Notes: a model not told the origin generated them from the letters alone. A DNA stretch of 64,000 bases from Nitrosomonadales bacterium (GCA_016223025.1 JACRPU010000021.1:14380-78379); one strand, 5' to 3'; counted from the stretch's first letter, positions 13,743 to 61,876 are shown. Numbers and translations: made by a program.

Positions 13743-15068
13743 TTACCCTTCCCGTCCGATGCCGTGATACTCGATGCCCAGCGCGGCGACGTTTGACGGT
13801 TCGAACAGGTTGCGGCCATCGAAGATGACGGGCTGCTTGAGGCGTGACTTGATCGCCCCGAAATCCGGGCTCTTGAAGGCCTTCCATTCGGTGACAATAA
13901 TCAGCGCATCCGCATCCTGCAGCGCATCCAGCGGAGTTTCGGCGTAGCGCAGGTCTTTGCGTTCGCCGTAAATATGGAGGGTTTCCTTCATCGCCACCGG
14001 GTCGTGCGCGGTGACGGTCGCGCCTTTTTCCCACAGCCCTTCCATCACCACGCGGCTGGTGGCGTCGCGCATGTCGTCGGTGCCCGGCTTGAAGGCCAGC
14101 CCCCAAAGCGCAAAATGCTTCCCCTTGAGGTCGCTGCCGAAGCGGGCGGTGATTTTTTGCAGCAGCACCCTCTTCTGCGCATGGTTCACCTCTTCCACCG
14201 CATTCAGGATTCTCAGCGGCAGACCGTGTTCTTCACCGGTGCGTTGCAGCGCGCGGATATCCTTGGGGAAGCAGGAGCCGCCATAGCCGCATCCGGCATA
14301 CAGGAAGTGATAGCCGATGCGCTGGTCCGAGCCGATGCCCTTGCGCACATGCTCGATGTCGGCACCGACCTCCTCGGCGAGGTTGGCCAGCTCGTTCATG
14401 AACGAGATGCGCGTGGCGAGCATGGCGTTGGCGGCGTACTTGGTCAGTTCCGCCGACTTGATGTCCATCACCATCAGGCGGTCGTGGTTGCGCTGGAACG
14501 GCGCGTACATCTCGCGCATGACATTGATCGCCCGCTCGTCCTCGGCGCCGATCACGATGCGGTCCGGGCGGTTGAAGTCATCTATTGCCGCGCCTTCCTT
14601 GAGGAATTCCGGGTTGGAAACCACGCTGAACCCGATTTCCATCCCGCGCTTGTCCATCTCTTCCTGCACCGCCTGTTTGACCTTGCCGGCGGTGCCGACC
14701 GGCACCGTGGATTTATCCACGATCACCTTGTATCCGGTCATGGCGCGACCGATGGCGCGCGCGGCGGCGACAACATACTGCAAATCCGCAGAACCGTCTT
14801 CGCCCGATGGCGTGCCCACCGCGATCATCTGCACCAGCCCGTGCGCCACGCTTGCGGCAACATCGGTGGTGAAACGCAGGCGACCGGCGGCGACATTGCT
14901 TTTGATGACTTCTTCCAGTCCCGGCTCGTAAATCGGCACACCGCCGCTGTTGAGGATAGCTATCTTGCGCGGGTCAACATCCAGGCAAATGACATCGTTG
15001 CCCAGCTCGGCCAGACATGCGCCGGACACCAGGCCCACATAGCCGGAACCGATTACAGTAATTTTCAT
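13743..15068 (-). CDS. ugd: UDP-glucose 6-dehydrogenase
   Basis: 441 aa. [20 protein letters not shown] Rossmann start and catalytic GGSCFPKD motif. Confidence 0.92.
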
Positions 15069-15264
15069 TTCACCGAACCTTCAAAAATCAAAGTGCGCAT
15101 TATGCCGTAGAATGGCCGGACTAGTCAGCGCCGCTGGCCAAATACCCTGTGAGACGGGGTTTCTTGTTGGGCAGAGAGATGGCAATCTTGTGATTGCCGC
15201 TACTGTATTTGTCTGGTGCGTTCGGCTAAACTGCGCGCCGATTAGCTCGGAGGGCGGGTGTGAT

Positions 15265-15381
15265 TTAACGTGAAACTCGCGCAACGAGGGCTTCGCCCTC
15301 TCTCCCTCTGGGAGAGAGTAGAGTGAGGGAACGGGCATGGCGAGTTTCATAATCAGGGGTGGCTACTCGCCATGCCCGTTA
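15265..15381 (+). mobile_element. MITE-like structured element, family B, full copy 1
   Basis: TTAACGTGAAACTCGCGCAACGAGGG, then an internal CTCTCCC...GGGAGAG hairpin, then GGGAACGGGCATGGCGAGT-loop-ACTCGCCATGCCCGTTA (perfect 16 bp stem). The same architecture occurs at 20280, 31012 and 61253. Confidence 0.8.
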
Positions 15382-15547
15382 GCGTGAAATACATTTACGA
15401 AAACAGCCGTATGTTGCATGGAATCAATCTGTTACTCTGTGGATAAGTTCAGGCCTCAAGGGCAAGATTGACCTTCGGTTATTGCGCCTTCAACCCGATA
15501 ACCCAGTCTCTTATGAGCCAACTCTTCACATTTTTTGAGCGGATTCC

Positions 15548-15607
15548 CGTAGGTGCGAATGTATTCGCACGATCATCAGGTTATGTGCGGATACATTCGC
15601 ACCTACG
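15548..15607. repeat. REP-like hairpin
   Basis: CGTAGGTGCGAATGTATTCGCAC ... GTGCGGATACATTCGCACCTACG, about a 22 bp stem with one mismatch. Confidence 0.7.
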
Positions 15608-15767
15608 TTCGTTTGGTTCCGGCTCGCCCGGCTTAGGGCGCGAGCGCAGGCTCGAAGAGCCACCTGATGGATTATCTGGGTTCAAATGTAATTTTTCTCA
15701 TGTGTGCTGTTGGCGGATGAGGTGGTGAAATGAAATCTGTTGGCAACTCTGGGGTGTTGCGCAAGCC

Positions 15768-16580
15768 ATGACCCAGGCCGATCTGCAACTCACGTCTGTC
15801 GCGCGTATCCACGGCGAACCGCTGCTGGAGATGCCGCAGGATTTGTATATCCCGCCGGATGCGCTGGAAGTGGTGCTGGAAGCCTTTCAGGGGCCGCTCG
15901 ACTTGCTGCTGTACCTGATCCGCAAGCACAATCTGGATGTGCTCGATATTCCGATGGCGCAGCTCACGCAGCAGTACATGGGCTACATCGAGATGATGCG
16001 GCGCAACCGCATGGAGCTTGCCGCCGAGTATCTGCTGATGGCGGCGGTGCTGATCGAGATCAAGTCGCGCATGTTGCTGCCGCGCCCGCCCAGGGCGAGC
16101 GAGGGGGAGGGCGCGGAAGATCCGCGCGCCGAGCTGATGCGCCGCCTGATCGAATACGAGCAGATGAAACGCGCCGCGCAGAAGCTGAACGAGCTGCCGC
16201 AGGCCGGGCGCGATTTCGAGCTGGTGCAGGTGCTGATCGAGCGCGCCGTGGAGCAGCGCCTGCCGGGCGTCGCCGTGGAGGATTTGCGCCACGCCTGGCT
16301 GGCCCTGCTGGCGCGCGCCAGGCTGAACGCGCACCACAAGGTGCGGCGCGAGGAGCTGTCGGTGCGCGAGCAGATGACCAAAGTGCTGCGCCGACTGCGC
16401 CACGGCGAATTCGAACCGTTCGAGAATCTGTTCGACGCGGGCGATGGCATCGCGCAACTGGTGGTGACATTTATTGCCATTCTGGAACTGGCCAAGGAGT
16501 CCTTGGTTGAAATCACGCAAACCGAAACGCTGGGGAACATTTATGTCCGAGCAAGCCGCAGCCTTACCGCAGCAGAGTAA
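15768..16580 (+). CDS. scpA: Segregation and condensation protein A
   Basis: 270 aa. FQGPLDLLLYLIRKHNLDVLDIPMAQLTQQY is the kleisin ScpA signature. Confidence 0.9.
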   Translation: MTQADLQLTSVARIHGEPLLEMPQDLYIPPDALEVVLEAFQGPLDLLLYLIRKHNLDVLDIPMAQLTQQYMGYIEMMRRNRMELAAEYLLMAAVLIEIKSRMLLPRPPRASEGEGAEDPRAELMRRLIEYEQMKRAAQKLNELPQAGRDFELVQVLIERAVEQRLPGVAVEDLRHAWLALLARARLNAHHKVRREELSVREQMTKVLRRLRHGEFEPFENLFDAGDGIAQLVVTFIAILELAKESLVEITQTETLGNIYVRASRSLTAAE

Positions 16581-16644
16581 TTTTCCCGCTTCTCCGGAAG
16601 GGGCCGGGGGTGGGGGAGCCAACGATGCAGAGACTGCCACCATC

Positions 16645-17280
16645 ATGAACTCCCTCACCCCAACCCTGATGGAACCACTAGCCATTCGACCAGGCTGCCC
16701 GGATGCCGCAGCCAAGCCGCCGGTTATCTCCCAAAGGGAGAGGGAGCAGATGTTGCGCGTGCTGGAAGCCGCGCTGCTGACCGCGCAGGAGCCGCTGTCG
16801 TTGGCCGAGCTGAAGAAGCTTGGCGATGTGCCGACAGACAGCGGGATTATCGGAGAACTGCTCGAACATCTGGCGCGGGGTTATTAGAACAGCGGCGTGG
16901 AGCTCAACCGCGTGGCGAACGGCTGGCGTTTCCGCGCCCGCCCGGAAATGCAGCCCTATCTGGATCGCCTCAATCCGCAGAAACCGCCGCGCTACTCGCG
17001 CGCGGTGATGGAGACGCTCGCCATCATCACTTACCGCCAGCCGGTGACACGCGGCGATATCGAGGAAATACGGGGGGTGGCGGTATCTTCTCAGATACTG
17101 AAAACACTGGAAGCCCGCGGCTGGATAGACGTGGTCGGCACGCGCGATGCGCCGGGCAAACCCGCGCTGTACGCCACCACCAAGCAGATGCTGGACGATC
17201 TCAACCTGTGTTCCTTGCAGGAGTTGCCGCCGCTGGAGGAGATCAGCGGCTTGCTGGAACAGGAGCCGGGCACGGCATGA
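16645..17280 (+). pseudogene. scpB: Segregation and condensation protein B interrupted by an in-frame TAG (16885-16887)
   Basis: ORFs 16474-16887 and 16897-17280 are in the same frame. The joined sequence ...[29 protein letters not shown]...[32 protein letters not shown] is a colinear ScpB. The start is uncertain (ATG at 16543 or 16645). Confidence 0.8.
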
Positions 17281-17284
17281 GCCG

Positions 17285-18241
17285 TCAACTGCCTTCCGGC
17301 GCAATCCACGATCGGCCGGTCGCCCGCAACCCCTGATCGAGCGAGAACGGTGGATGCCAATTCAGTTCGCGGCGGATCTTGCCGTCATCCACCTGCAACG
17401 AATCCAGCAAGCGCCCCATTTGTTGGGATTTCCCGGCCAGTTTTCCGGCAAGCCGCAGCAAGGCGGCAGGGCAAGGGAACAGGCGCGAAGGAACGCCCAT
17501 TCCGCCTGCCAGTTGCCGCAGCAGGCCTGAAGTCGAGATGTCTTCGCCATCGCATACCAGGTAGGTCTGTCCGGTAGCTGCAGGATGGGTTGCGCAGACG
17601 ATCAGCGCATCCGCCAGGTTGCCCACATAAATCAGGCTGCGGTAGTTGCATACCGAGGCGAAAGGCAAGGGGATGCGCCCGGCAACCACGTTGAGCATCT
17701 GCGCGAAATTACCTTTCACGCCGGGGCCGTACACCAGCGGAGGGCGCACGATAACCACTTCCAACCCGGTTTCCCGTGCAATGCGCCGCAATTCCTGCTC
17801 GGCTTCCCGCTTTGAGACGGCATAGGGGTCCTGCGGGGCAGGCGGGTCGGCCTCGGAGAATTTTTGCCCATTACGGGTTGCTTCGCCGTTCACCTTGATC
17901 GAGCTGACGTAGACCAACCGCTTCACGCCGGCACGCGCCGCCTGACGCGCGAGGTTTATCGTGCCATGCAGATTGACCTCGAGAAACTCTGCCAACGGGT
18001 CGGCGGCGGTATCGCTCATCACATGCACGCGGGCGGCGAGATGGATCACCGCGCCCACGCCGTGCAATGCAGTTGCCCAGTCCGTCGCACCGTCAATCCG
18101 ACCGACGGCCACCTGTTCGGTTTTACCGGTTGGCCCATCGGCGGCACGCACAGCCGCACGGACGGACTGCCCCCGCCGGAGCAGTTCGGCGCAGAGCGGT
18201 TTGCCGACAAAACCGCCGGGCCCGGTAACCAGATATTTCAT
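17285..18241 (-). CDS. NAD-dependent sugar-nucleotide epimerase/dehydratase (SDR family)
   Basis: The internal ATG gives MKYLVTGPGGFVGKPL (Rossmann GxxGxxG). YAVSK catalytic motif present. Confidence 0.8.
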   Translation of the reverse strand: MKYLVTGPGGFVGKPLCAELLRRGQSVRAAVRAADGPTGKTEQVAVGRIDGATDWATALHGVGAVIHLAARVHVMSDTAADPLAEFLEVNLHGTINLARQAARAGVKRLVYVSSIKVNGEATRNGQKFSEADPPAPQDPYAVSKREAEQELRRIARETGLEVVIVRPPLVYGPGVKGNFAQMLNVVAGRIPLPFASVCNYRSLIYVGNLADALIVCATHPAATGQTYLVCDGEDISTSGLLRQLAGGMGVPSRLFPCPAALLRLAGKLAGKSQQMGRLLDSLQVDDGKIRRELNWHPPFSLDQGLRATGRSWIAPEGS

Positions 18242-18498
18242 GTTTGTTCCGAAGCCCTTTGCATATTGCGTACTCCACGGCATTCGGCCACCTGCTCCAC
18301 GATGATCCGACCGGGTCAGTCGGAGCGAAGCGACGCAAGATTTTCAGGTTAAGTTGTTTGGTCGCCGCCTGTCAATTTTCCCATTTCTTTACGCATCAAT
18401 TTGCCGGTCAAATTGATCCGGTAGCTGATCGCGTTGGTGAGGTAAGCCCGGCATGCCGCTTCAACCCGGCTGTTATGTCGCGCGGTTTGCGGGGGCGT

Positions 18499-18649
18499 GC
18501 AGGCATGGCGAGTTTCATTTAGCCGCAAGCTCGAAACTTCGCTTCGCTCGTTTGGCCGCAAGCTCGAAACTTCGCTTCGCTCGTTTGGCCGCAAGCTCGA
18601 AACTTCGCTTCGCTCGTTTTCAGGGGTGGCTACTTTGCCATGCCCGTTA
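18499..18649 (+). mobile_element. Family B element, hairpin half only, loop expanded by a tandem repeat
   Basis: GGCATGGCGAGTTTCAT ... GGGGTGGCTACTTTGCCATGCCCGTTA. The terminal TTA is the complement of the dsrM TAA stop. Confidence 0.7.
18518..18616. repeat. Tandem repeat, 3 x 33 bp
   Basis: TTT(A/G)GCCGCAAGCTCGAAACTTCGCTTCGCTCG repeated three times head to tail. Confidence 0.95.
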
Positions 18650-19372
18650 TTCTCCCGTTTCCAGTTTGGCCGCCCACGCTGCCAGATGGCGCTTTTCGCG
18701 CGGGTTGTCGGCCTGGTTGCGGGAGGGCGAGAAGAACACCCCCGGCGCGTGCAGCAGCTTGCTGAAAGGGAAAATAACCAGCAGCAGCGCGACCAGCAAA
18801 AGGTGCAGATAGAGCGCGAAGTCGGAAGGCAGCGTCTGGAAATCGAAGCGCATGAGGCCGAGAATGAAGGCCTTGGCGCCGATGACATCGGTGTGGAAAA
18901 CAAACGCCATCAGCGCGCCGGAAAGAGCAATGAGAAGCAGCAGCACCAGCATCAGATGATCTGACGGGGTCGAAATGTAGCGGATGCGCTCGACAAAAAA
19001 ACGCCGCGCCAGCAGCCCGGCAAGCGCGAGAACCATGACCGGCGAGGCATAAAGGCCGAACGGCTGAGCAAGCGCAACCCAGAGCCAGACCGGTTCGGTA
19101 AAGTAGCGCAGATGCCGTATCAGAACCAGCACCAGGCTCAAGTGGAAAAGCCAGCCCAGCGCCCATGTCCAGAGGTTGGATTTGAACAGGCTTTCAAAAA
19201 ACACCACTTCCCTGCACATGCGCAATACGACGCCGCCGCCGGTGACGGGCGCCGGGGTGGTCGGGATTTTCAGCGGCGCCGGCGTGCGCGCAAAATCATA
19301 AATCTTGTACCCCACTCCCAGCACCAGTACCAGGAATGCGAGGTAGAACAAAATGGCGAAGAGCAAGCTCAT
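18647..19372 (-). CDS. dsrM: NarI-like dihaem membrane subunit, read as DsrM
   Basis: 241 aa with 5-6 TM segments and conserved His, positioned immediately after dsrC in a dsrABEFHC array. Confidence 0.7.
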   Translation of the reverse strand: MSLLFAILFYLAFLVLVLGVGYKIYDFARTPAPLKIPTTPAPVTGGGVVLRMCREVVFFESLFKSNLWTWALGWLFHLSLVLVLIRHLRYFTEPVWLWVALAQPFGLYASPVMVLALAGLLARRFFVERIRYISTPSDHLMLVLLLLIALSGALMAFVFHTDVIGAKAFILGLMRFDFQTLPSDFALYLHLLLVALLLVIFPFSKLLHAPGVFFSPSRNQADNPREKRHLAAWAAKLETGE

Positions 19373-19411
19373 TTTCGGTATGACGGGAGCCAGGGGTCAG
19401 GGGGCAAGGGC

Positions 19412-19470
19412 CAGGAATCGGGTATCAGAAATGGGGCCGGTGCCCGGCTTTTTCTGACCCCTGATTCCTG
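19412..19470 (-). promoter_or_regulatory. Long stem-loop in the dsrC-dsrM spacer (candidate mRNA stabiliser or processing site)
   Basis: On the transcript: CAGGAATCAGGGGTCAGAAAAAGCCGG-GCA-CCGGCCCCATTTCTGATACCCGATTCCTG. An outer 8 bp stem, a middle TCAGAAA/TTTCTGA stem and an inner GCCGG/CCGGC stem. No U-run follows. Confidence 0.4.
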
Positions 19471-19493
19471 TTACCCGATACCCGACACCCGGA

Positions 19494-19829
19494 TCAGATG
19501 CAGCCGGTCGGTTTGGGCAGCCCCGCAATCTTGCATGCCTGCTTCCCCGGCCCGTAGGGAAACAGCTCGTAGAGGTACTGGCTGTTGCCTTTGTCCGGCC
19601 CGAATTTCTTGCCGATAGCCTTGGTCAGCACGCGGACCGCCGGGGCGATCTGATATTCTTCATAGTACTCGCGCAGAAAGTTGACCACTTCCCAGTGGTT
19701 GTCGGTCATGTTCAGGCTTTCCTGCTGCGCTATGAAATTGGCGACATCGGTGTTCCAGTCGGCGAGATTGATGAGGTAACCTTCCTCGTCGGTTTCATAG
19801 GATTTACCGCTTACTTCGATGCTGGCCAT
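19494..19829 (-). CDS. dsrC: DsrC sulfur carrier, both C-terminal cysteines present
   Basis: 111 aa. C-terminus PGKQACKIAGLPKPTGCI carries the two conserved Cys. Confidence 0.92.
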   Translation of the reverse strand: MASIEVSGKSYETDEEGYLINLADWNTDVANFIAQQESLNMTDNHWEVVNFLREYYEEYQIAPAVRVLTKAIGKKFGPDKGNSQYLYELFPYGPGKQACKIAGLPKPTGCI

Positions 19830-19860
19830 GGTGATTCTCCTCTTTTAACTTTAACCGGGT

Positions 19861-20157
19861 TCAAAGCCAGGATTGGCAGTTTTTATTGGCGGCGACGAGA
19901 TCAACAAAACCGCCGTAATCTACTTTCGCAACTCCTTCGATGATGCGATCGGCAAGCCCGCGCGCTTCGAGGTCGGGCAGCAGGATATGTATCTTTAACC
20001 GGCTCATCGCTTCGCGCACTTTGCCCTCCATCGCGTTGCCTTTTGTTGCGGCATAAACCGCGTCTTCGATAAGCAGGATGTCGCCTGATGCGGCGACGCG
20101 CAGGCAGGCATCGAGCGAGTTGTTACCCAGCGGCGACTTGTTGATGATGTGCAGCAT
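19861..20157 (-). CDS. dsrH: DsrH (TusB-like)
   Basis: 98 aa. MLHIINKSP... DsrH/TusB pattern and position in the dsrEFH set. Confidence 0.85.
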   Translation of the reverse strand: MLHIINKSPLGNNSLDACLRVAASGDILLIEDAVYAATKGNAMEGKVREAMSRLKIHILLPDLEARGLADRIIEGVAKVDYGGFVDLVAANKNCQSWL

Positions 20158-20198
20158 TTTGATTCCTTACTTTTGTAGAGCTACTGAAACCCTTGGTC

Positions 20199-20268
20199 CG
20201 TCATTCCGGCGAAAGCCGGAATCCGGTGCTTTTGATCGAATGGACACCGGCCTTCGCCGGTGTGACGA
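20199..20268. repeat. Double-hairpin repeat, family C
   Basis: CGTCATTCCGGCGAAAGCCGGAATCCGGTG ... TGGACACCGGCCTTCGCCGGTGTGACGAC. A second copy is at 58073-58140. Confidence 0.8.
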
Positions 20269-20279
20269 CCATGTTCCTC

Positions 20280-20401
20280 TAACGGGCATGGCGAATAGCC
20301 ACCCCTGATTATGAAACTCGCCAAGCCCGTTTCCCTCACCCCAACCCTCTCCCGCTGGCGGGAGAGGGGGCGAACGAACCGCTGCGCGAGTTTCACGTTA
20401 A
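20280..20401 (-). mobile_element. Family B element, full copy 2 (reverse orientation) between dsrF and dsrH
   Basis: Its reverse complement aligns end to end with 15265-15381, with a variant central hairpin CTCTCCCGCTGGCGGGAGAG. The terminal TTAA contains the dsrF stop. Confidence 0.8.
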
Positions 20402-20763
20402 AAGCTCAGCACCACATCCTGCTCATCCATGAGCGCGCCCATTTCCCTGCTGCCCAGGACGGTCACATCCACCAGCAGGTCTTCTTCGGTCAGGCCGCGC
20501 GCGTCGAGCGATTCCTTTTCGACGTAGAGTTTTTCGACATCGTAACCATCCAGCGCGCGGTAGGTGGGGGAAAAATTCTTGGTTTCTATCCCCTTTGTCT
20601 GCTGGCCTTTCTTCAACTGATACACGCCGTCGTCAAGAAATGCCAGCGACACGTCCTGATCGAAAGCGGCGGTGATGAGCACCACCTCCAGCGATTCCAG
20701 CGCGTAAATCGTGCCGTAGGGCGCCTTGCGGTTGACGAACAGGAATTTTTTGACTTCGTTCAT
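20398..20763 (-). CDS. dsrF: DsrF (TusC-like)
   Basis: 121 aa, DsrE/F fold pattern, second gene of dsrEFH. Confidence 0.85.
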   Translation of the reverse strand: MNEVKKFLFVNRKAPYGTIYALESLEVVLITAAFDQDVSLAFLDDGVYQLKKGQQTKGIETKNFSPTYRALDGYDVEKLYVEKESLDARGLTEEDLLVDVTVLGSREMGALMDEQDVVLSF

Positions 20764-20771
20764 ATGTTTCC

Positions 20772-21131
20772 TCAGTCGCCGAATACCACTACGCGGTCGG
20801 TCTGGATGCCGGCCTCGACCAGTTGCCCGAGACCGGAAATGCGGAACCCGTGCGCCAGGTTCTCGTCCTGGATGCCGCGCCGCAGGGCTGCCGCGACGCA
20901 GACCACGAGGTCAATCTTGTGCTCTTCGGCCAGCTTGCTCCAGCGGATCACGATGTGGCGGTCATCCTGCGGCGGCTCAGTCAGCCGCGTGGCGTTGTTG
21001 ACGCCGTCGTGGTAGAAAAAGACGCGCCAGATTTCGTGCCCCTTTTCGACTGCGGCCTTGCAGAACAGATAGGCCGAGTCGCTTGCCTGGTGCTGGTAGG
21101 GACCCTCGTTGACGACGATGCCAAATTTCAT
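20772..21131 (-). CDS. dsrE: DsrE (TusD-like)
   Basis: 119 aa. MKFGIVVNEGPYQHQAS... with the conserved Cys in DLVVCVAAALRRG. Confidence 0.85.
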   Translation of the reverse strand: MKFGIVVNEGPYQHQASDSAYLFCKAAVEKGHEIWRVFFYHDGVNNATRLTEPPQDDRHIVIRWSKLAEEHKIDLVVCVAAALRRGIQDENLAHGFRISGLGQLVEAGIQTDRVVVFGD

Positions 21132-24053: not shown

Positions 24054-24629
24054 ATGACGGATGTCGCCTTCGGCTTGCGGGGCGAGCTCGTTCCGGCGGG
24101 CTATGCCTTCGCGTTGTGGGATGAAGTGGCGCGTTGCCTGCCGTGGCTGGAAGCCGACGAGTTTGCCGGGATAGTCCCCTTGCGCGCTGCGGCAAGCGGG
24201 GGCAACATGCTGTTGCCGCGTCGCGCGAAACTGGTGTTGCGCCTGAGATCGCAGTTTGCGCAGCGCGCAAGGTCGCTGACCGGGCGGGAGCTGGATGTTG
24301 GCGGCAGCATGTTGCGGGTGGGCGAAGCCGAGGAACGGTCGCTGAAACCGTACCCGACGCTCCACGCGCAACTGGTGGAGAGCGCCAGCGAAGAGGGGGC
24401 CTTTCTTGCCGGCATGGCCGCCCGCCTGCAAGAAATGGAGGTTGCCTGCAAGCTGGTCTGCGGCAAGCGGCTTGCGGTGGCGGGAGAAAAGCAGCAGGTT
24501 GCCGGATACAGCCTCGTGCTGCACGACCTCAAGCCGGAAGGCTCCTTGCAGGTGCAGCGGATGGGGCTGGGCGGCAGCCGCCGTTTCGGCTGCGGAATTT
24601 TTGTGCCATACAAAACCATTGTAACGTGA
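24054..24629 (+). CDS. Cas6/Cmx6-like RAMP-fold protein, orphan (no CRISPR or other cas genes in window)
   Basis: ATG at 24054. N-terminus MTDVAFGLRGELVPAGYAFALWDEVARCLPWL and C-terminal glycine-rich loop GLGGSRRFGCGIFVP match my recollection of the subtype MYXAN Cas6 (Cmx6) family pattern. Confidence 0.5.
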   Translation: MTDVAFGLRGELVPAGYAFALWDEVARCLPWLEADEFAGIVPLRAAASGGNMLLPRRAKLVLRLRSQFAQRARSLTGRELDVGGSMLRVGEAEERSLKPYPTLHAQLVESASEEGAFLAGMAARLQEMEVACKLVCGKRLAVAGEKQQVAGYSLVLHDLKPEGSLQVQRMGLGGSRRFGCGIFVPYKTIVT

Positions 24630-24661
24630 GCTCGCGCAACGGGCGCTTACAGGAGGCAAAA

Positions 24662-27091: not shown

Positions 27092-27372
27092 ACGTGAAGC
27101 TCGCGTAGCGAGTCCGTGTCCCCTCGCCTGCGTGTGTTGTTGTGGCTTCATCGCAACTGCAGCGCACCTCCCGCGGAATGTTGCGGTATAAACGGCGATC
27201 AAGCCGGCGCCCTTTGCCGGCTTGGCCGAACGGCTATAACTTGATGGTTTGCCCGGCGGTTCTTGCCGGATAGCCGGTTGCTTCACCATCTGCTGCATCC
27301 AGAGAGCGGTGGTGAGGGAAGCGGACAGGGCGAGTTTCATTTCCAGGGGTGGTTTCTTTGCCATACCCGTTA
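27092..27372 (+). mobile_element. Family B element, degenerate copy with a large internal insertion
   Basis: Left end ACGTGAAGCTCGCGTAGCGAG and right end GGTGAGGGAAGCGGACAGGGCGAGTTTCATTTCCAGGGGTGGTTTCTTTGCCATACCCGTTA. Confidence 0.55.
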
Positions 27373-31011: not shown

Positions 31012-31180
31012 TAACGGGCATGTCGAGTAGCCACCCCTGATTATGAAACTCGCCATGCCCGTTTCCCTCACCCGTGCGTGGCTGTTGCCGCTTCAGCGGC
31101 TTTACAGCCACGGCCTGCCCCTTGCGGGTGCAACCCTCCCCCGCTGGCGGGAGAGGGGGCAAACGAATCGCTGCGCGAGA
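31012..31180 (-). mobile_element. Family B element, copy 3 with an extra nested hairpin insertion and an altered end
   Basis: TAACGGGCATGTCGAGTAGCCACCCCTGATTATGAAACTCGCCATGCCCGTTTCCCTCACCC, plus an inserted CGTGGCTGT...ACAGCCACG hairpin, then CCCGCTGGCGGGAGAGGGGGC...GCTGCGCGAG. Confidence 0.7.
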
Positions 31181-59978: not shown

Positions 59979-60265
59979 TTGAGCAGAACGATCATGGCGC
60001 AGGCCACCCCGAATGATGAGGAGAGGGGTGCGGTATGCCCTCGCTGCGCGAGGTTCACGTTACAACCCGGCCTCTACCACCGGTGGCGGCGGGGTTAAAA
60101 AGGCGCTTCTGATTTACAAAACGACCGTTCGCACCGAGGTTGCGGAGCGCGATTTACACATTTTTGAAATACCGCCCGAACCAGCTTGCCAACCCCCTCC
60201 GGCGCCCCCTGATGCGGAGCGCGGGAAGCCCGCGTAATTGCGCGGTTTTCCTGTTTCCTGCGCGG

Positions 60266-61252: not shown

Positions 61253-61378
61253 TTAACGTGAAGCTCGCGCAGCGAGGGCTTCGCCCTCGCTCCCTCTGGG
61301 AGAGAGTAGAGTGAGGGAACGGGCGTGCCGAGTTTCATAAGCAGGGGTGGCTACTCGCCATGCCCGTTCGGATTGCGC
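61253..61378 (+). mobile_element. Family B element, full copy 4
   Basis: TTAACGTGAAGCTCGCGCAGCGAGGGCTTCGCCCTCGCTCCCTCTGGGAGAGAGTAGAGTGAGGGAACGGGCGTGCCGAGTTTCATAAGCAGGGGTGGCTACTCGCCATGCCCGTT. Ends 3 nt from the msrB stop. Confidence 0.8.
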
Positions 61379-61381
61379 GAT

Positions 61382-61876
61382 TTACGCCCTGTCCGGAACA
61401 AACTTCAGCGCCACACCGTTGTTGCAGTATCTCAAGCCGGTCGGCGGCGGGCCATCCTTGAACACGTGCCCCTGGTGTCCGCCGCAACGCGCGCAGTGAT
61501 ATTCGGTTCGCGGCATAATCAGCTTGAAATCGGTCCGGGTTCCGACGTGGCCGGGCAGGACATCGGTAAAACTCGGCCAGCCGGTGCCGCTGTCGAACTT
61601 GAAGCGGGACGGAAACAGCGCCAGCTCGCAGGCGGCGCACACGAACACGCCGTTGCGGGATTCATGCTCCAGCGGGCTGGTGAAGGGAGGCTCGGTGCCT
61701 TCCTCGCGCAGCACGTGATATTGTTCCGCCGTGAGCAGTTTTTTCCATTCTGCGTTGGGCCTGCTGATTTTCTCGATAGGTTCTGCCGCCATAGCCTGCT
61801 CCGGTTCGACGAATTTCAATAATGCCAACACGCCGGCCCCGCCCGACGCCAGCCGGATGAATGAGCGCCTGTCCAT
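61382..61876 (-). CDS. msrB: Peptide-methionine (R)-S-oxide reductase MsrB with twin-arginine signal
   Basis: ATG at 61876 (AAGGAGG RBS). MDRRSFIRLASGGAGVLALL Tat leader, zinc CxxC pairs (CAAC, CARC) and catalytic RYCNNG. Confidence 0.88.
   Translation of the reverse strand: MDRRSFIRLASGGAGVLALLKFVEPEQAMAAEPIEKISRPNAEWKKLLTAEQYHVLREEGTEPPFTSPLEHESRNGVFVCAACELALFPSRFKFDSGTGWPSFTDVLPGHVGTRTDFKLIMPRTEYHCARCGGHQGHVFKDGPPPTGLRYCNNGVALKFVPDRA

Follow-up and report, generated by a model that had tools for sequence, protein, structure and literature searches.

The only mini-element associated with the IS110 family that our literature search found described is MITEPpu9 of Pseudomonas putida KT2440, which exists in eight copies, harbors the sRNA gene ssr9 and is located in REP sequences, as is its insertion sequence (IS), ISPpu9 (PMC12288879). 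MITEPpu9 is short and transposase-less, is bounded by sequences resembling the left and right ends of IS110-family elements with a short AG core at both junctions, and is proposed to be mobilized in trans via circular intermediates (PMC12288879). The bridge-RNA recombinases of the IS621/IS110 group are described as using RNA to recognize a target about 11-14 nt long (Durrant et al. 2024, PMC11208160, as reported in PMC12288879), and REPs are preferred insertion targets of IS621 or ISPpu9 (PMC12288879). The REP/REPIN sequences mobilized by RAYT enzymes are built on a palindrome of 20-40 bp with a GTAG/CGTC tag; they are high-copy, intergenic, palindromic and, within bacterial families, vertically persistent, and they form mosaics and tandems (PMC3116915, PMC2817692, PMC3733652). 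The same search found nothing on repeats of the Gallionellaceae. The Correia (NEMIS) elements of Neisseria possess 26-bp terminal inverted repeats and a true TA duplication, and they follow a DDE-type mechanism.

Here we describe a repeat family, family B, from a window of 64,000 nucleotides (C2:14380-78379) in the draft genome of a member of the Gallionellaceae (2.75 Mb in 137 contigs, 60% G+C). Our analysis indicates that family B is probably a MITE-like, non-autonomous derivative of an IS110-family IS, the group with a DEDD recombinase and a bridge RNA. It resembles MITEPpu9 in being short and transposase-less, in its IS110-like ends, in a short core at both junctions (TAA in family B) and in a mobilization in trans via circular intermediates, which we infer for family B as well. 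In contrast to MITEPpu9, it reaches about 100-200 copies per genome in many genera, has no recognizable RNA gene, and its flanks share only TTAG. With REP/REPIN it shares the high copy number, the intergenic and palindromic character, the vertical persistence and the mosaics and tandems; however, its tag is CTAAC, each 117-bp unit combines two unlike ends, its copies do not flank any RAYT gene, and its ends match those of an IS110-type IS. With the Correia elements and other TA-targeting MITEs it has in common a length of 100-150 bp, a betaproteobacterial host, hundreds of copies, a short A/T site and frequent co-transcription with the neighbors, but neither the 26-bp terminal inverted repeats nor the TA duplication of the Correia elements is present. 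The kind of element is thus known from MITEPpu9, whereas the family-wide radiation into hundreds of copies, the 4-nt target that includes stop codons, the mosaic modules and the asymmetric inheritance of the core appear to be undescribed.

The full copies have sharp ends and read (t)TTA-ACGTGAA[A/T]CTCGCG[C/T]AGCG ... CCATGnnCGTTA-G(g), where hyphens mark the element boundaries and the hairpin end is CCCGTTA-G. On the opposite strand the unit runs from C-TAA-CGGGCATGG..CCACCCCTGATnATGAAA... to ...TTTCACGT-TAA; in the orientation of the transposase it is C-TAA-CGGGCATGGCGAGTAGCCACCCCTGATTATGAAACTCGCCATGCCCG...GCGAGTTTCACGT-TAA, the exact tips being TAA-CGGGCATGG... and ...GAGTTTCACGT-TAA. The flanks of the 96 full copies diverge exactly at TTA. 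The unit measures 117-130 bp, has no ORF and encodes no protein. Terminal inverted repeats were not found in it, as the two tips have only TAACG in common, and for this reason we call the family MITE-like, as expected of IS110 derivatives. Three hairpins lie between the tips: a small one (GAGGGCttcGCCCTC), the variable CTCTCCC/GGGAGAG hairpin and a terminal one of 16 bp that reaches into the terminal TTA. Folding of the consensus as single-stranded DNA (-34.8 kcal/mol, z = -6.95) confirmed the 16-bp terminal stem seen in the preliminary description. Subfamilies of 117, 122, 129 and 170-180 bp exist, and their stems differ by compensatory changes, for example from GGGCATGGCGAGT/ACTCGCCATGCCC to CGCACATGGCGCAG/CTGCGCCATGTGCG; when 30 sequences were aligned, 7 of the 20 pairs predicted showed double changes. 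Four copies (C101:2500, C134:4654, C120:12342 and C26:16278) have the loop of the terminal hairpin reverse-complemented and the stem unchanged, the inversion being located between the hairpin arms.

All eight copies named in the preliminary description, four as full and four as partial, were located in the window. The copy at 15265-15381 (plus strand) is a full one of 117 bp: the element-derived core TTA at 15265-15267 is followed by the right-end (RE) type tip ACGTGAAACTCGCG and the small hairpin, the central CTCTCCC/GGGAGAG hairpin at 15298-15318 and the 16-bp terminal hairpin at 15330-15380, with the terminal TTA at 15379-15381 and then G. The first 74 nt (GCGTGAAATACATTTACGA...) of a truncated sister mini-element, A1, occupy 15382-15455 on the same strand and are inserted exactly at the TTA that ends this B copy. 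A second 117-bp copy, between the gene of an HMBD protein and msrB, was correctly named as full, but it ends at 61369 and not at 61378, thus spanning 61253-61369 (plus strand) and being 9 nt shorter than described. The copy on the minus strand that had been given as full at 31012-31180 does exist and extends to 31183; however, the outer ~7 nt of its RE-type tip (TTAACGTGAA) are missing and it carries an internal insertion of ~50 nt. The partial copies comprise a weak, degenerate fragment of an RE-type tip (GTAACGTGAGCTCGCGCAACG) at 24622-24650 (plus strand), a degenerate composite at 27092-27372 (plus strand) in which the tip-like GACGTGAAGCTCGCGTAGCGAG and ~170 nt of other DNA precede a hairpin module (27282-27372) ending CCCGTTA-G, and a left (RE-type) module only, GTAACGTGAACCTCGCGCAGCGAGGGCATACC..., at 60020-60062 (minus strand). 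The fourth partial copy, at 18499-18649 (plus strand), consists of the left-end (LE) type hairpin module only, and its loop carries a 3 x 33 bp tandem insert. Related loop inserts (~30-36 nt) occur at C108:18858, C15:795 and C2:81776, which suggests that the 33-nt unit, tripled at 18518-18616, is a subfamily insert that expanded locally.

Two of the copies touch stop codons of the dsr genes just as had been noticed. The terminal TTA of the 18499-18649 copy is the TAA stop of a dsrM-like gene on the minus strand (18647-18649), and the stop of dsrF (TAA, 20398-20400), which overlaps the TTAA tip of the full 122-bp copy at 20280-20401 (minus strand, between dsrF and dsrH), is formed by the TA of the core and the first base of the element. 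The contact reported for the third gene did not hold: the msrB stop (61382-61384), placed 3 nt away, is 12 nt from the true element end. The 20280-20401 site is empty in two genomes of the same genus (G001 and G002), where the stop region has diverged (CTGA) and the exact pre-insertion sequence is unreadable. A B-like copy of another genus (L176, G013:C9 ~59.4 kb), ~70% identical, occupies the same dsrF stop in the same orientation. Either this site was hit recurrently, or the insertion is old and has been precisely lost elsewhere. A different repeat (GTCATTCCGGCGAAAGCCGGAATCC...CACCGGCCTTCGCCGGTG) adjoins the B copy between dsrF and dsrH at 20199-20268, and dozens of its copies are found in G001, G002, G003 and G008. 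On contig C127 (6664-8193) a dsrK-like gene with a CCG domain (509 aa) is followed by a gene of 653 aa, so that dsr genes missing after dsrM in the window are located elsewhere. A break of the operon after dsrM by recombination between B copies was considered and rejected, as no B copy lies near the dsrK-like gene.

The genome-wide search of the unit by iterated nhmmer gave 222 hits, 96 of them full length and about 120 partial; the non-full hits are single modules, split copies and copies cut by contig ends. Similarity extends over the whole 117 bp and is not limited to the palindrome. The window contains 8 nhmmer hits, the number that had been taken as a high density, yet about 5 are expected per 64 kb and the enrichment is modest only; two diagnostic motifs of the family have 6 and 4 matches in the window compared to 0.03 and 0.00 expected by chance. 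The modules behave as a mosaic: the left one occurs ~149 times, the right one ~105 times, and each is also joined to other partners. Among 41 relatives, family B is present in 14, all from the same taxonomic family, a family of iron and sulfur oxidizers, and it is absent from 16 of 16 genomes of other families of the order. The exact left tip was found at more than 106 loci, nearly all from MAGs of Gallionella, Gallionellaceae or Nitrosomonadales, the rest being a few labelled Sulfuricellaceae, Thiobacillaceae or Hydrogenophilales. Copies of other genera are 73-86% identical to those described here, and each genome has its own young variants. The earlier view of a mobile, still diversifying family with site-directed insertion is supported.

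The insertion site was deduced from empty sites, for which the two flanks of a copy were joined with one TTA and sought uninterrupted in the genome. The sequence ..GCCAGC TTA GTCAG.. was present in five places and ..TCCA TTA GGCCG.. in two; the single TTA in these uninterrupted sites means that the empty site is one TTA before G. At the dsrF and msrB loci, orthologous sites of G001 and G002 are empty, which reveals presence/absence polymorphism. G follows the right TTA in 79 of the 96 full copies and T precedes the left TTA in 47; outside the boundaries only these two positions are biased, and the conserved target is (t)TTA-G(g). A target conservation of ~11-14 nt was not found over the 96 flanks. 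The preliminary description was right in suggesting directed insertion, but the site is TTA before G (TTAG/CTAA) and not TA or TTAA.

The two trinucleotides that flank a copy do not have the same origin. TTA is found at the left junction in 85 of the 96 copies and at the right one in 63, and non-canonical sites harbor one element-type and one target-type trinucleotide, with the second and third bases of the target at the hairpin side. Copy C94_10592 (target TCA) has TTA at the left junction and TCA at the right, and copy C20_23035 (target CTA) has CTA at the left and TTA at the right. The copy at 61253 in the window has TTA at the left and TTC at the right, and since the orthologous empty site of G001 reads ...GA TTC GAG..., its TTC is derived from the target. 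In the youngest subfamily (27 copies) the mismatch at the last base is 22%, compared to a mean of 3.8% per position. One element and one target trinucleotide argue against a fill-in duplication, which would give two target copies. Therefore the TA/TTAA duplications sought at these sites are no true duplications, as the flanking trinucleotides differ at non-canonical sites (TTA/TCA, CTA/TTA, TTA/TTC). Such asymmetric inheritance is in line with conservative, short-core recombination of the IS110 kind, and TAA stands at both junctions in the ISs described below as it does in family B.

A search for a cognate transposase, for which a RAYT or an IS with matching ends had been suggested, led to ISs of the IS110 family with a DEDD recombinase and not to a RAYT. 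A complete IS was found in genome G263 (locus L153) when 301 genomes of the family were searched with a Comamonas protein as query. Its ORF of 406 aa contains the domains PF01548 (DEDD_Tnp_IS110, 1.6e-32) and PF02371 (Transposase_20, 9.7e-21), its flanks are C-TAA- ... -TAA-A, and its left end CGGGCATTGCAGTTGCAGCCACCCCTGATGATGAAAG and right end ...TTCTTTCACGT (also read ...GAATTCTTTCACGT)-TAA are the tips of family B. An IS110 element of genome G146 (L154) reads TAA-CGCGCATGGCAATGATGTTGCCCCGATGAT... / ...GGGCTTTCACGG-TAA and is abutted by a B-like partial copy that begins with the same 33 nt as the IS left end. Both ISs share with family B the first 33-45 nt of the left end and the right tip TTTCACG. 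B copies with the ends of the G263 IS number at least 43 in genome G263 itself and at least 24 in its congener G274.

The genome under study contains other repeats that start with TTA-RCGTGAA: A1 (25 copies, ~130 bp), A3 (13 copies, ~127 bp) and A2 (14 copies). The sister families A1 and A3 have the same tips as family B. A1 (GCGTGAAATACATTTACGA...CTGCATGAAAGTTA) shares its ends with A2, and its 25 practically identical copies (e.g. C1:41724 and C19:1886) imply a very recent burst. The 13-14 copies of A2 all run off contig ends (e.g. C83:1-226 and C117:1-140) and the interior is absent from the assembly, which indicates a long element that broke the assembly; no hit to the interior was obtained among relatives or metagenome contigs. 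One end of A2, ...GGTGTCTTTCACGC-TAA, is found at 14 contig ends. The other end, TAA-CTTTCATGCAG..CCCCCGATAATGAAAGACAC (...GTGTCTTTCATTATCGGGGGCGCTGCGCTACTGCTGCATGAAAGTTA-G on the other strand), is found at 13 contig ends and is built like the right ends of A1, A3 and B; the flanks of A2 diverge exactly at TTA. Read inward from the tip on the other strand, A2 gives 41 C-terminal residues that are 70.7% identical to the product of a frameshifted gene on a Comamonas plasmid, the pieces of which carry the IS110 recombinase domains PF01548 and PF02371. The Comamonas IS ends in ...GGTGTCTTCCACAT-TAA and begins with C-TAA-CTGTCATG...CACCCTGGATGATGGAAGACAC, an end architecture as in A2. These 41 aa and the end architecture indicate that A2 is an IS110-type IS. 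Its left tip CTTTCATG differs from CGGGCATG of family B. An IS with exactly the tips of family B was not found in this assembly, where A2 is the only related IS.

Domain searches of the genome miss A2 entirely, a concrete case of drafts hiding active ISs. IS110 genes of the B-tip lineage were detected in few B-bearing drafts, which under-report them, and no IS110 gene was detected in the B-bearing drafts G001, G003, G006, G007, G008 and G016; these absences are weak evidence because the same search missed the 13-14 copies of A2. The IS110 copies of G002, G004, G013, G015, G018, G021 and G022 were scanned as well, none had B-type tips, and we assigned them to other IS110 lineages. The sole PF02371 hit in the genome (C24:51200-52700) was also discarded as a different, frameshifted IS110-family gene. 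Another IS, which ends in ...CCGTAATTACGTGAATACCCCA, occurs in two variants and breaks the assembly at ~27 places (e.g. C2:1-140); except for a chance ACGTGAA it is unrelated to family B.

When the left ends of three ISs were aligned with those of B and A1, the first ~45 nt proved common to all five, whereas a downstream block of ~100 nt, AGAGGTCG..TTTTTG..CTAAC..GACCCGC, is common to the ISs only and is lacking in the mini-elements. The block (L153:1290-1420, L021:1160-1260 and the A2 left end) contains CTAAC, matching the left junction, and it presumably represents a non-coding bridge RNA; an Rfam scan of the G263 IS gave no match and the block has no Rfam model. In each lineage read, an internal segment of the left end is the complement of the element's own right-end tip: TGAAACTCGC / GCGAGTTTCA in B, TGAAAGACAC / GTGTCTTTCA in A2, TGGAAGACAC / GTGTCTTCCA in the Comamonas IS and TGAAAGAAAATTC / GAATTCTTTCA in the G263 IS, with a shorter match in G146 and A1. 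This covarying subterminal repeat is a candidate DNA site or RNA guide. The autonomous partners thus resemble the IS621 group in their DEDD and Transposase_20 domains, the lack of terminal inverted repeats, a short core at both junctions and unequal ends, the left one long, non-coding and upstream of the gene, the right one very short. The B lineage differs from that group in a target conservation of only 4-5 nt, and the conserved left-end block makes its bridge RNA a putative one.

From these comparisons the following route can be proposed. A B copy would consist of C-TAA-, ~45 nt of an IS left end (tip CGGGCATGG, with the motif CCACCCCTGATnATGAAA extended into the 16-bp hairpin), a variable G+C-rich hairpin filler, ~20 nt of an IS right end (...GCGAGTTTCACGT) and -TAA. 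The recombinase and the presumed bridge RNA would be supplied in trans by a resident IS of the same group. The element would be excised as a circle with the RE-TAA-LE junction ...GCGAGTTTCACGT TAA CGGGCATGGCGAG..., and its TAA/TTA core would undergo conservative recombination with a chromosomal TTA followed by G. In the inserted copy, the RE-side trinucleotide would come from the element and the LE-side one from the target.

One would argue that a single-strand pathway explains the same ends. Y1 enzymes use subterminal hairpins and place an element 3' of a short target that is not duplicated. If a tyrosine (Y1) transposase of the IS200/IS605 or RAYT type moved family B in single-stranded form, as with REP/REPIN or palindrome-associated elements, this would agree with its asymmetric ends without terminal inverted repeats and with the hairpin abutting one end; insertion 3' of (C)TAA by an element with its own terminal TAA is formally the Y1 pattern, and the genome has three PF01797 hits. 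However, two of the three Y1 genes lie on contigs without any B copy (C13 and C121) and the third is separated by 7 kb or more from the copies on C136, the presence of Y1 genes is uncorrelated with family B across the 41 relatives, and the conserved tag is CTAAC instead of GTAG or CGTC. No Y1 transposase partner with the ends of family B was found, and the only autonomous elements found with the exact tips encode IS110-type recombinases. Thus we rank a Y1 mechanism below an IS110 one and consider it unlikely.

The preference for intergenic sites can be understood in part from the target itself. Genes were called with a crude, self-trained dicodon gene caller (2242 genes), which replaced a poor GC3-based calling, and by this caller 94 of the 96 full copies are intergenic. 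A junction shares a stop codon with 14 of 79 adjacent gene ends, so the contact with stop codons is systematic, as the preliminary description had supposed; it is due to the stop codons within the site, TAG in TTAG and TAA in the complementary CTAA. Genes have 0.36 TTAG/CTAA sites per kb and the DNA between them 3.2, so that the site is ~9-fold rarer in genes. A site that has a stop codon on either strand and is rare in genes would direct insertions between genes, often on stop codons, which would be regenerated: a gene ending ...C TAA would retain this stop when an element inserts behind it with the left end adjacent, as in the dsrM-like gene, and a gene presumably ending ...T TAG would, on the other strand, become ...T TAA CGTG, as in dsrF. 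Outside the B copies, 813 TTAG/CTAA sites are genic and 1521 intergenic; genic sites thus make up 35% of the total but genic copies only 2 of 96 (P about 2e-15), which implies that purifying selection adds to target availability.

The same intergenic position could reflect maintenance of the family mainly as a host RNA structure, i.e. a terminator, a stabilizer of mRNA in 3' UTRs or operons, or a small RNA, and the very stable fold (z = -6.95), the compensatory changes in both hairpins and the copies inside the dsr operon are consistent with such a role. Copies inside operons (between dsrF and dsrH, and after dsrM) must be transcribed and may affect the mRNA. However, selection of 3' UTR structures or terminators, which had been put forward as a reason for the family, does not agree with the unbiased orientation relative to co-directional genes (31 same, 26 opposite) and with the 14 copies between divergent gene starts. 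There is no U-tract after the B hairpin, a terminator scan of 15000-21000 calls no copy, and an Rfam scan of the window gave 0 matches at gathering score. Additionally, sites are polymorphic among genomes of the same genus, the near identity of young copies and the ends in common with ISs suggest that the family spread by transposition, and covariation of the hairpins is equally expected if the recombination machinery needs them. A host RNA role as the main reason for the family is therefore improbable. A sigma-70 promoter across the RE-LE junction was also considered and was dropped, as no convincing -35/-10 pair was seen by eye.

The least probable explanation, that family B is a preferred target of IS110 elements, in which case the sequences in common would be a B copy split in two around each IS, can refer to the known entry of IS110-family elements into REPs (PMC12288879) and to ~10 of 25 A1 and 5 of 14 A2 copies that sit exactly at the TTA ending a B hairpin (A1 at 15382-15455 among them), but 13-14 A2 copies and the G263 IS have unrelated DNA immediately outside TTA, the sequences in common with B are located inside the IS boundary, the two IS ends total only ~45-55 nt of B and lack the 3' hairpin arm, the central hairpin and the CGCTGCGCGAG segment, which speaks against a split copy, B copies occupy about 96 different flanks, and in-silico removal of the IS (L153, A2 ends) restores no complete B sequence. 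The unrelated flanks, the position of the shared sequence inside the IS and its limited length instead indicate that family B is an internally replaced mini-IS. Further insertions are nevertheless drawn to element boundaries, and the junction formed by A1 or A2 at a B hairpin has the sequence that would be expected for a circle junction.

Derivation from an IS110 element leaves one unusual property to be accounted for: a target of only TTA and G, with a weak T before and a G after, is atypical for IS110. It is possible, though we put it forward tentatively, that an IS110 lineage has reduced its target choice to a core of 3-4 nt (TTA before G), that stop codons and intergenic TTAG serve as safe harbors, and that mini-elements devoid of protein and guide (~45 nt from the left end and 20 nt from the right) have thereby reached hundreds of copies across a bacterial family. 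The covarying left-end segment and right-end tip would then act as a donor-recognition code. IS110 recombinases are under study as programmable, RNA-guided genome-writing enzymes. Natural mini-donors would define, by comparison, the minimum of a donor (~45 nt from the left end, ~20 nt from the right, and the covarying internal segment that pairs with the tip), and the lineage would reveal which core mismatches are tolerated; it also raises the question of how target recognition was shortened.

For the Gallionellaceae, family B explains a large share of the intergenic DNA and the places where draft assemblies break, as well as the structured inserts of 120-240 bp in operons such as dsr that are absent from related genomes. 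Insertion on stop codons with regeneration of the stop would be a neat route to harmlessness for a mobile element.
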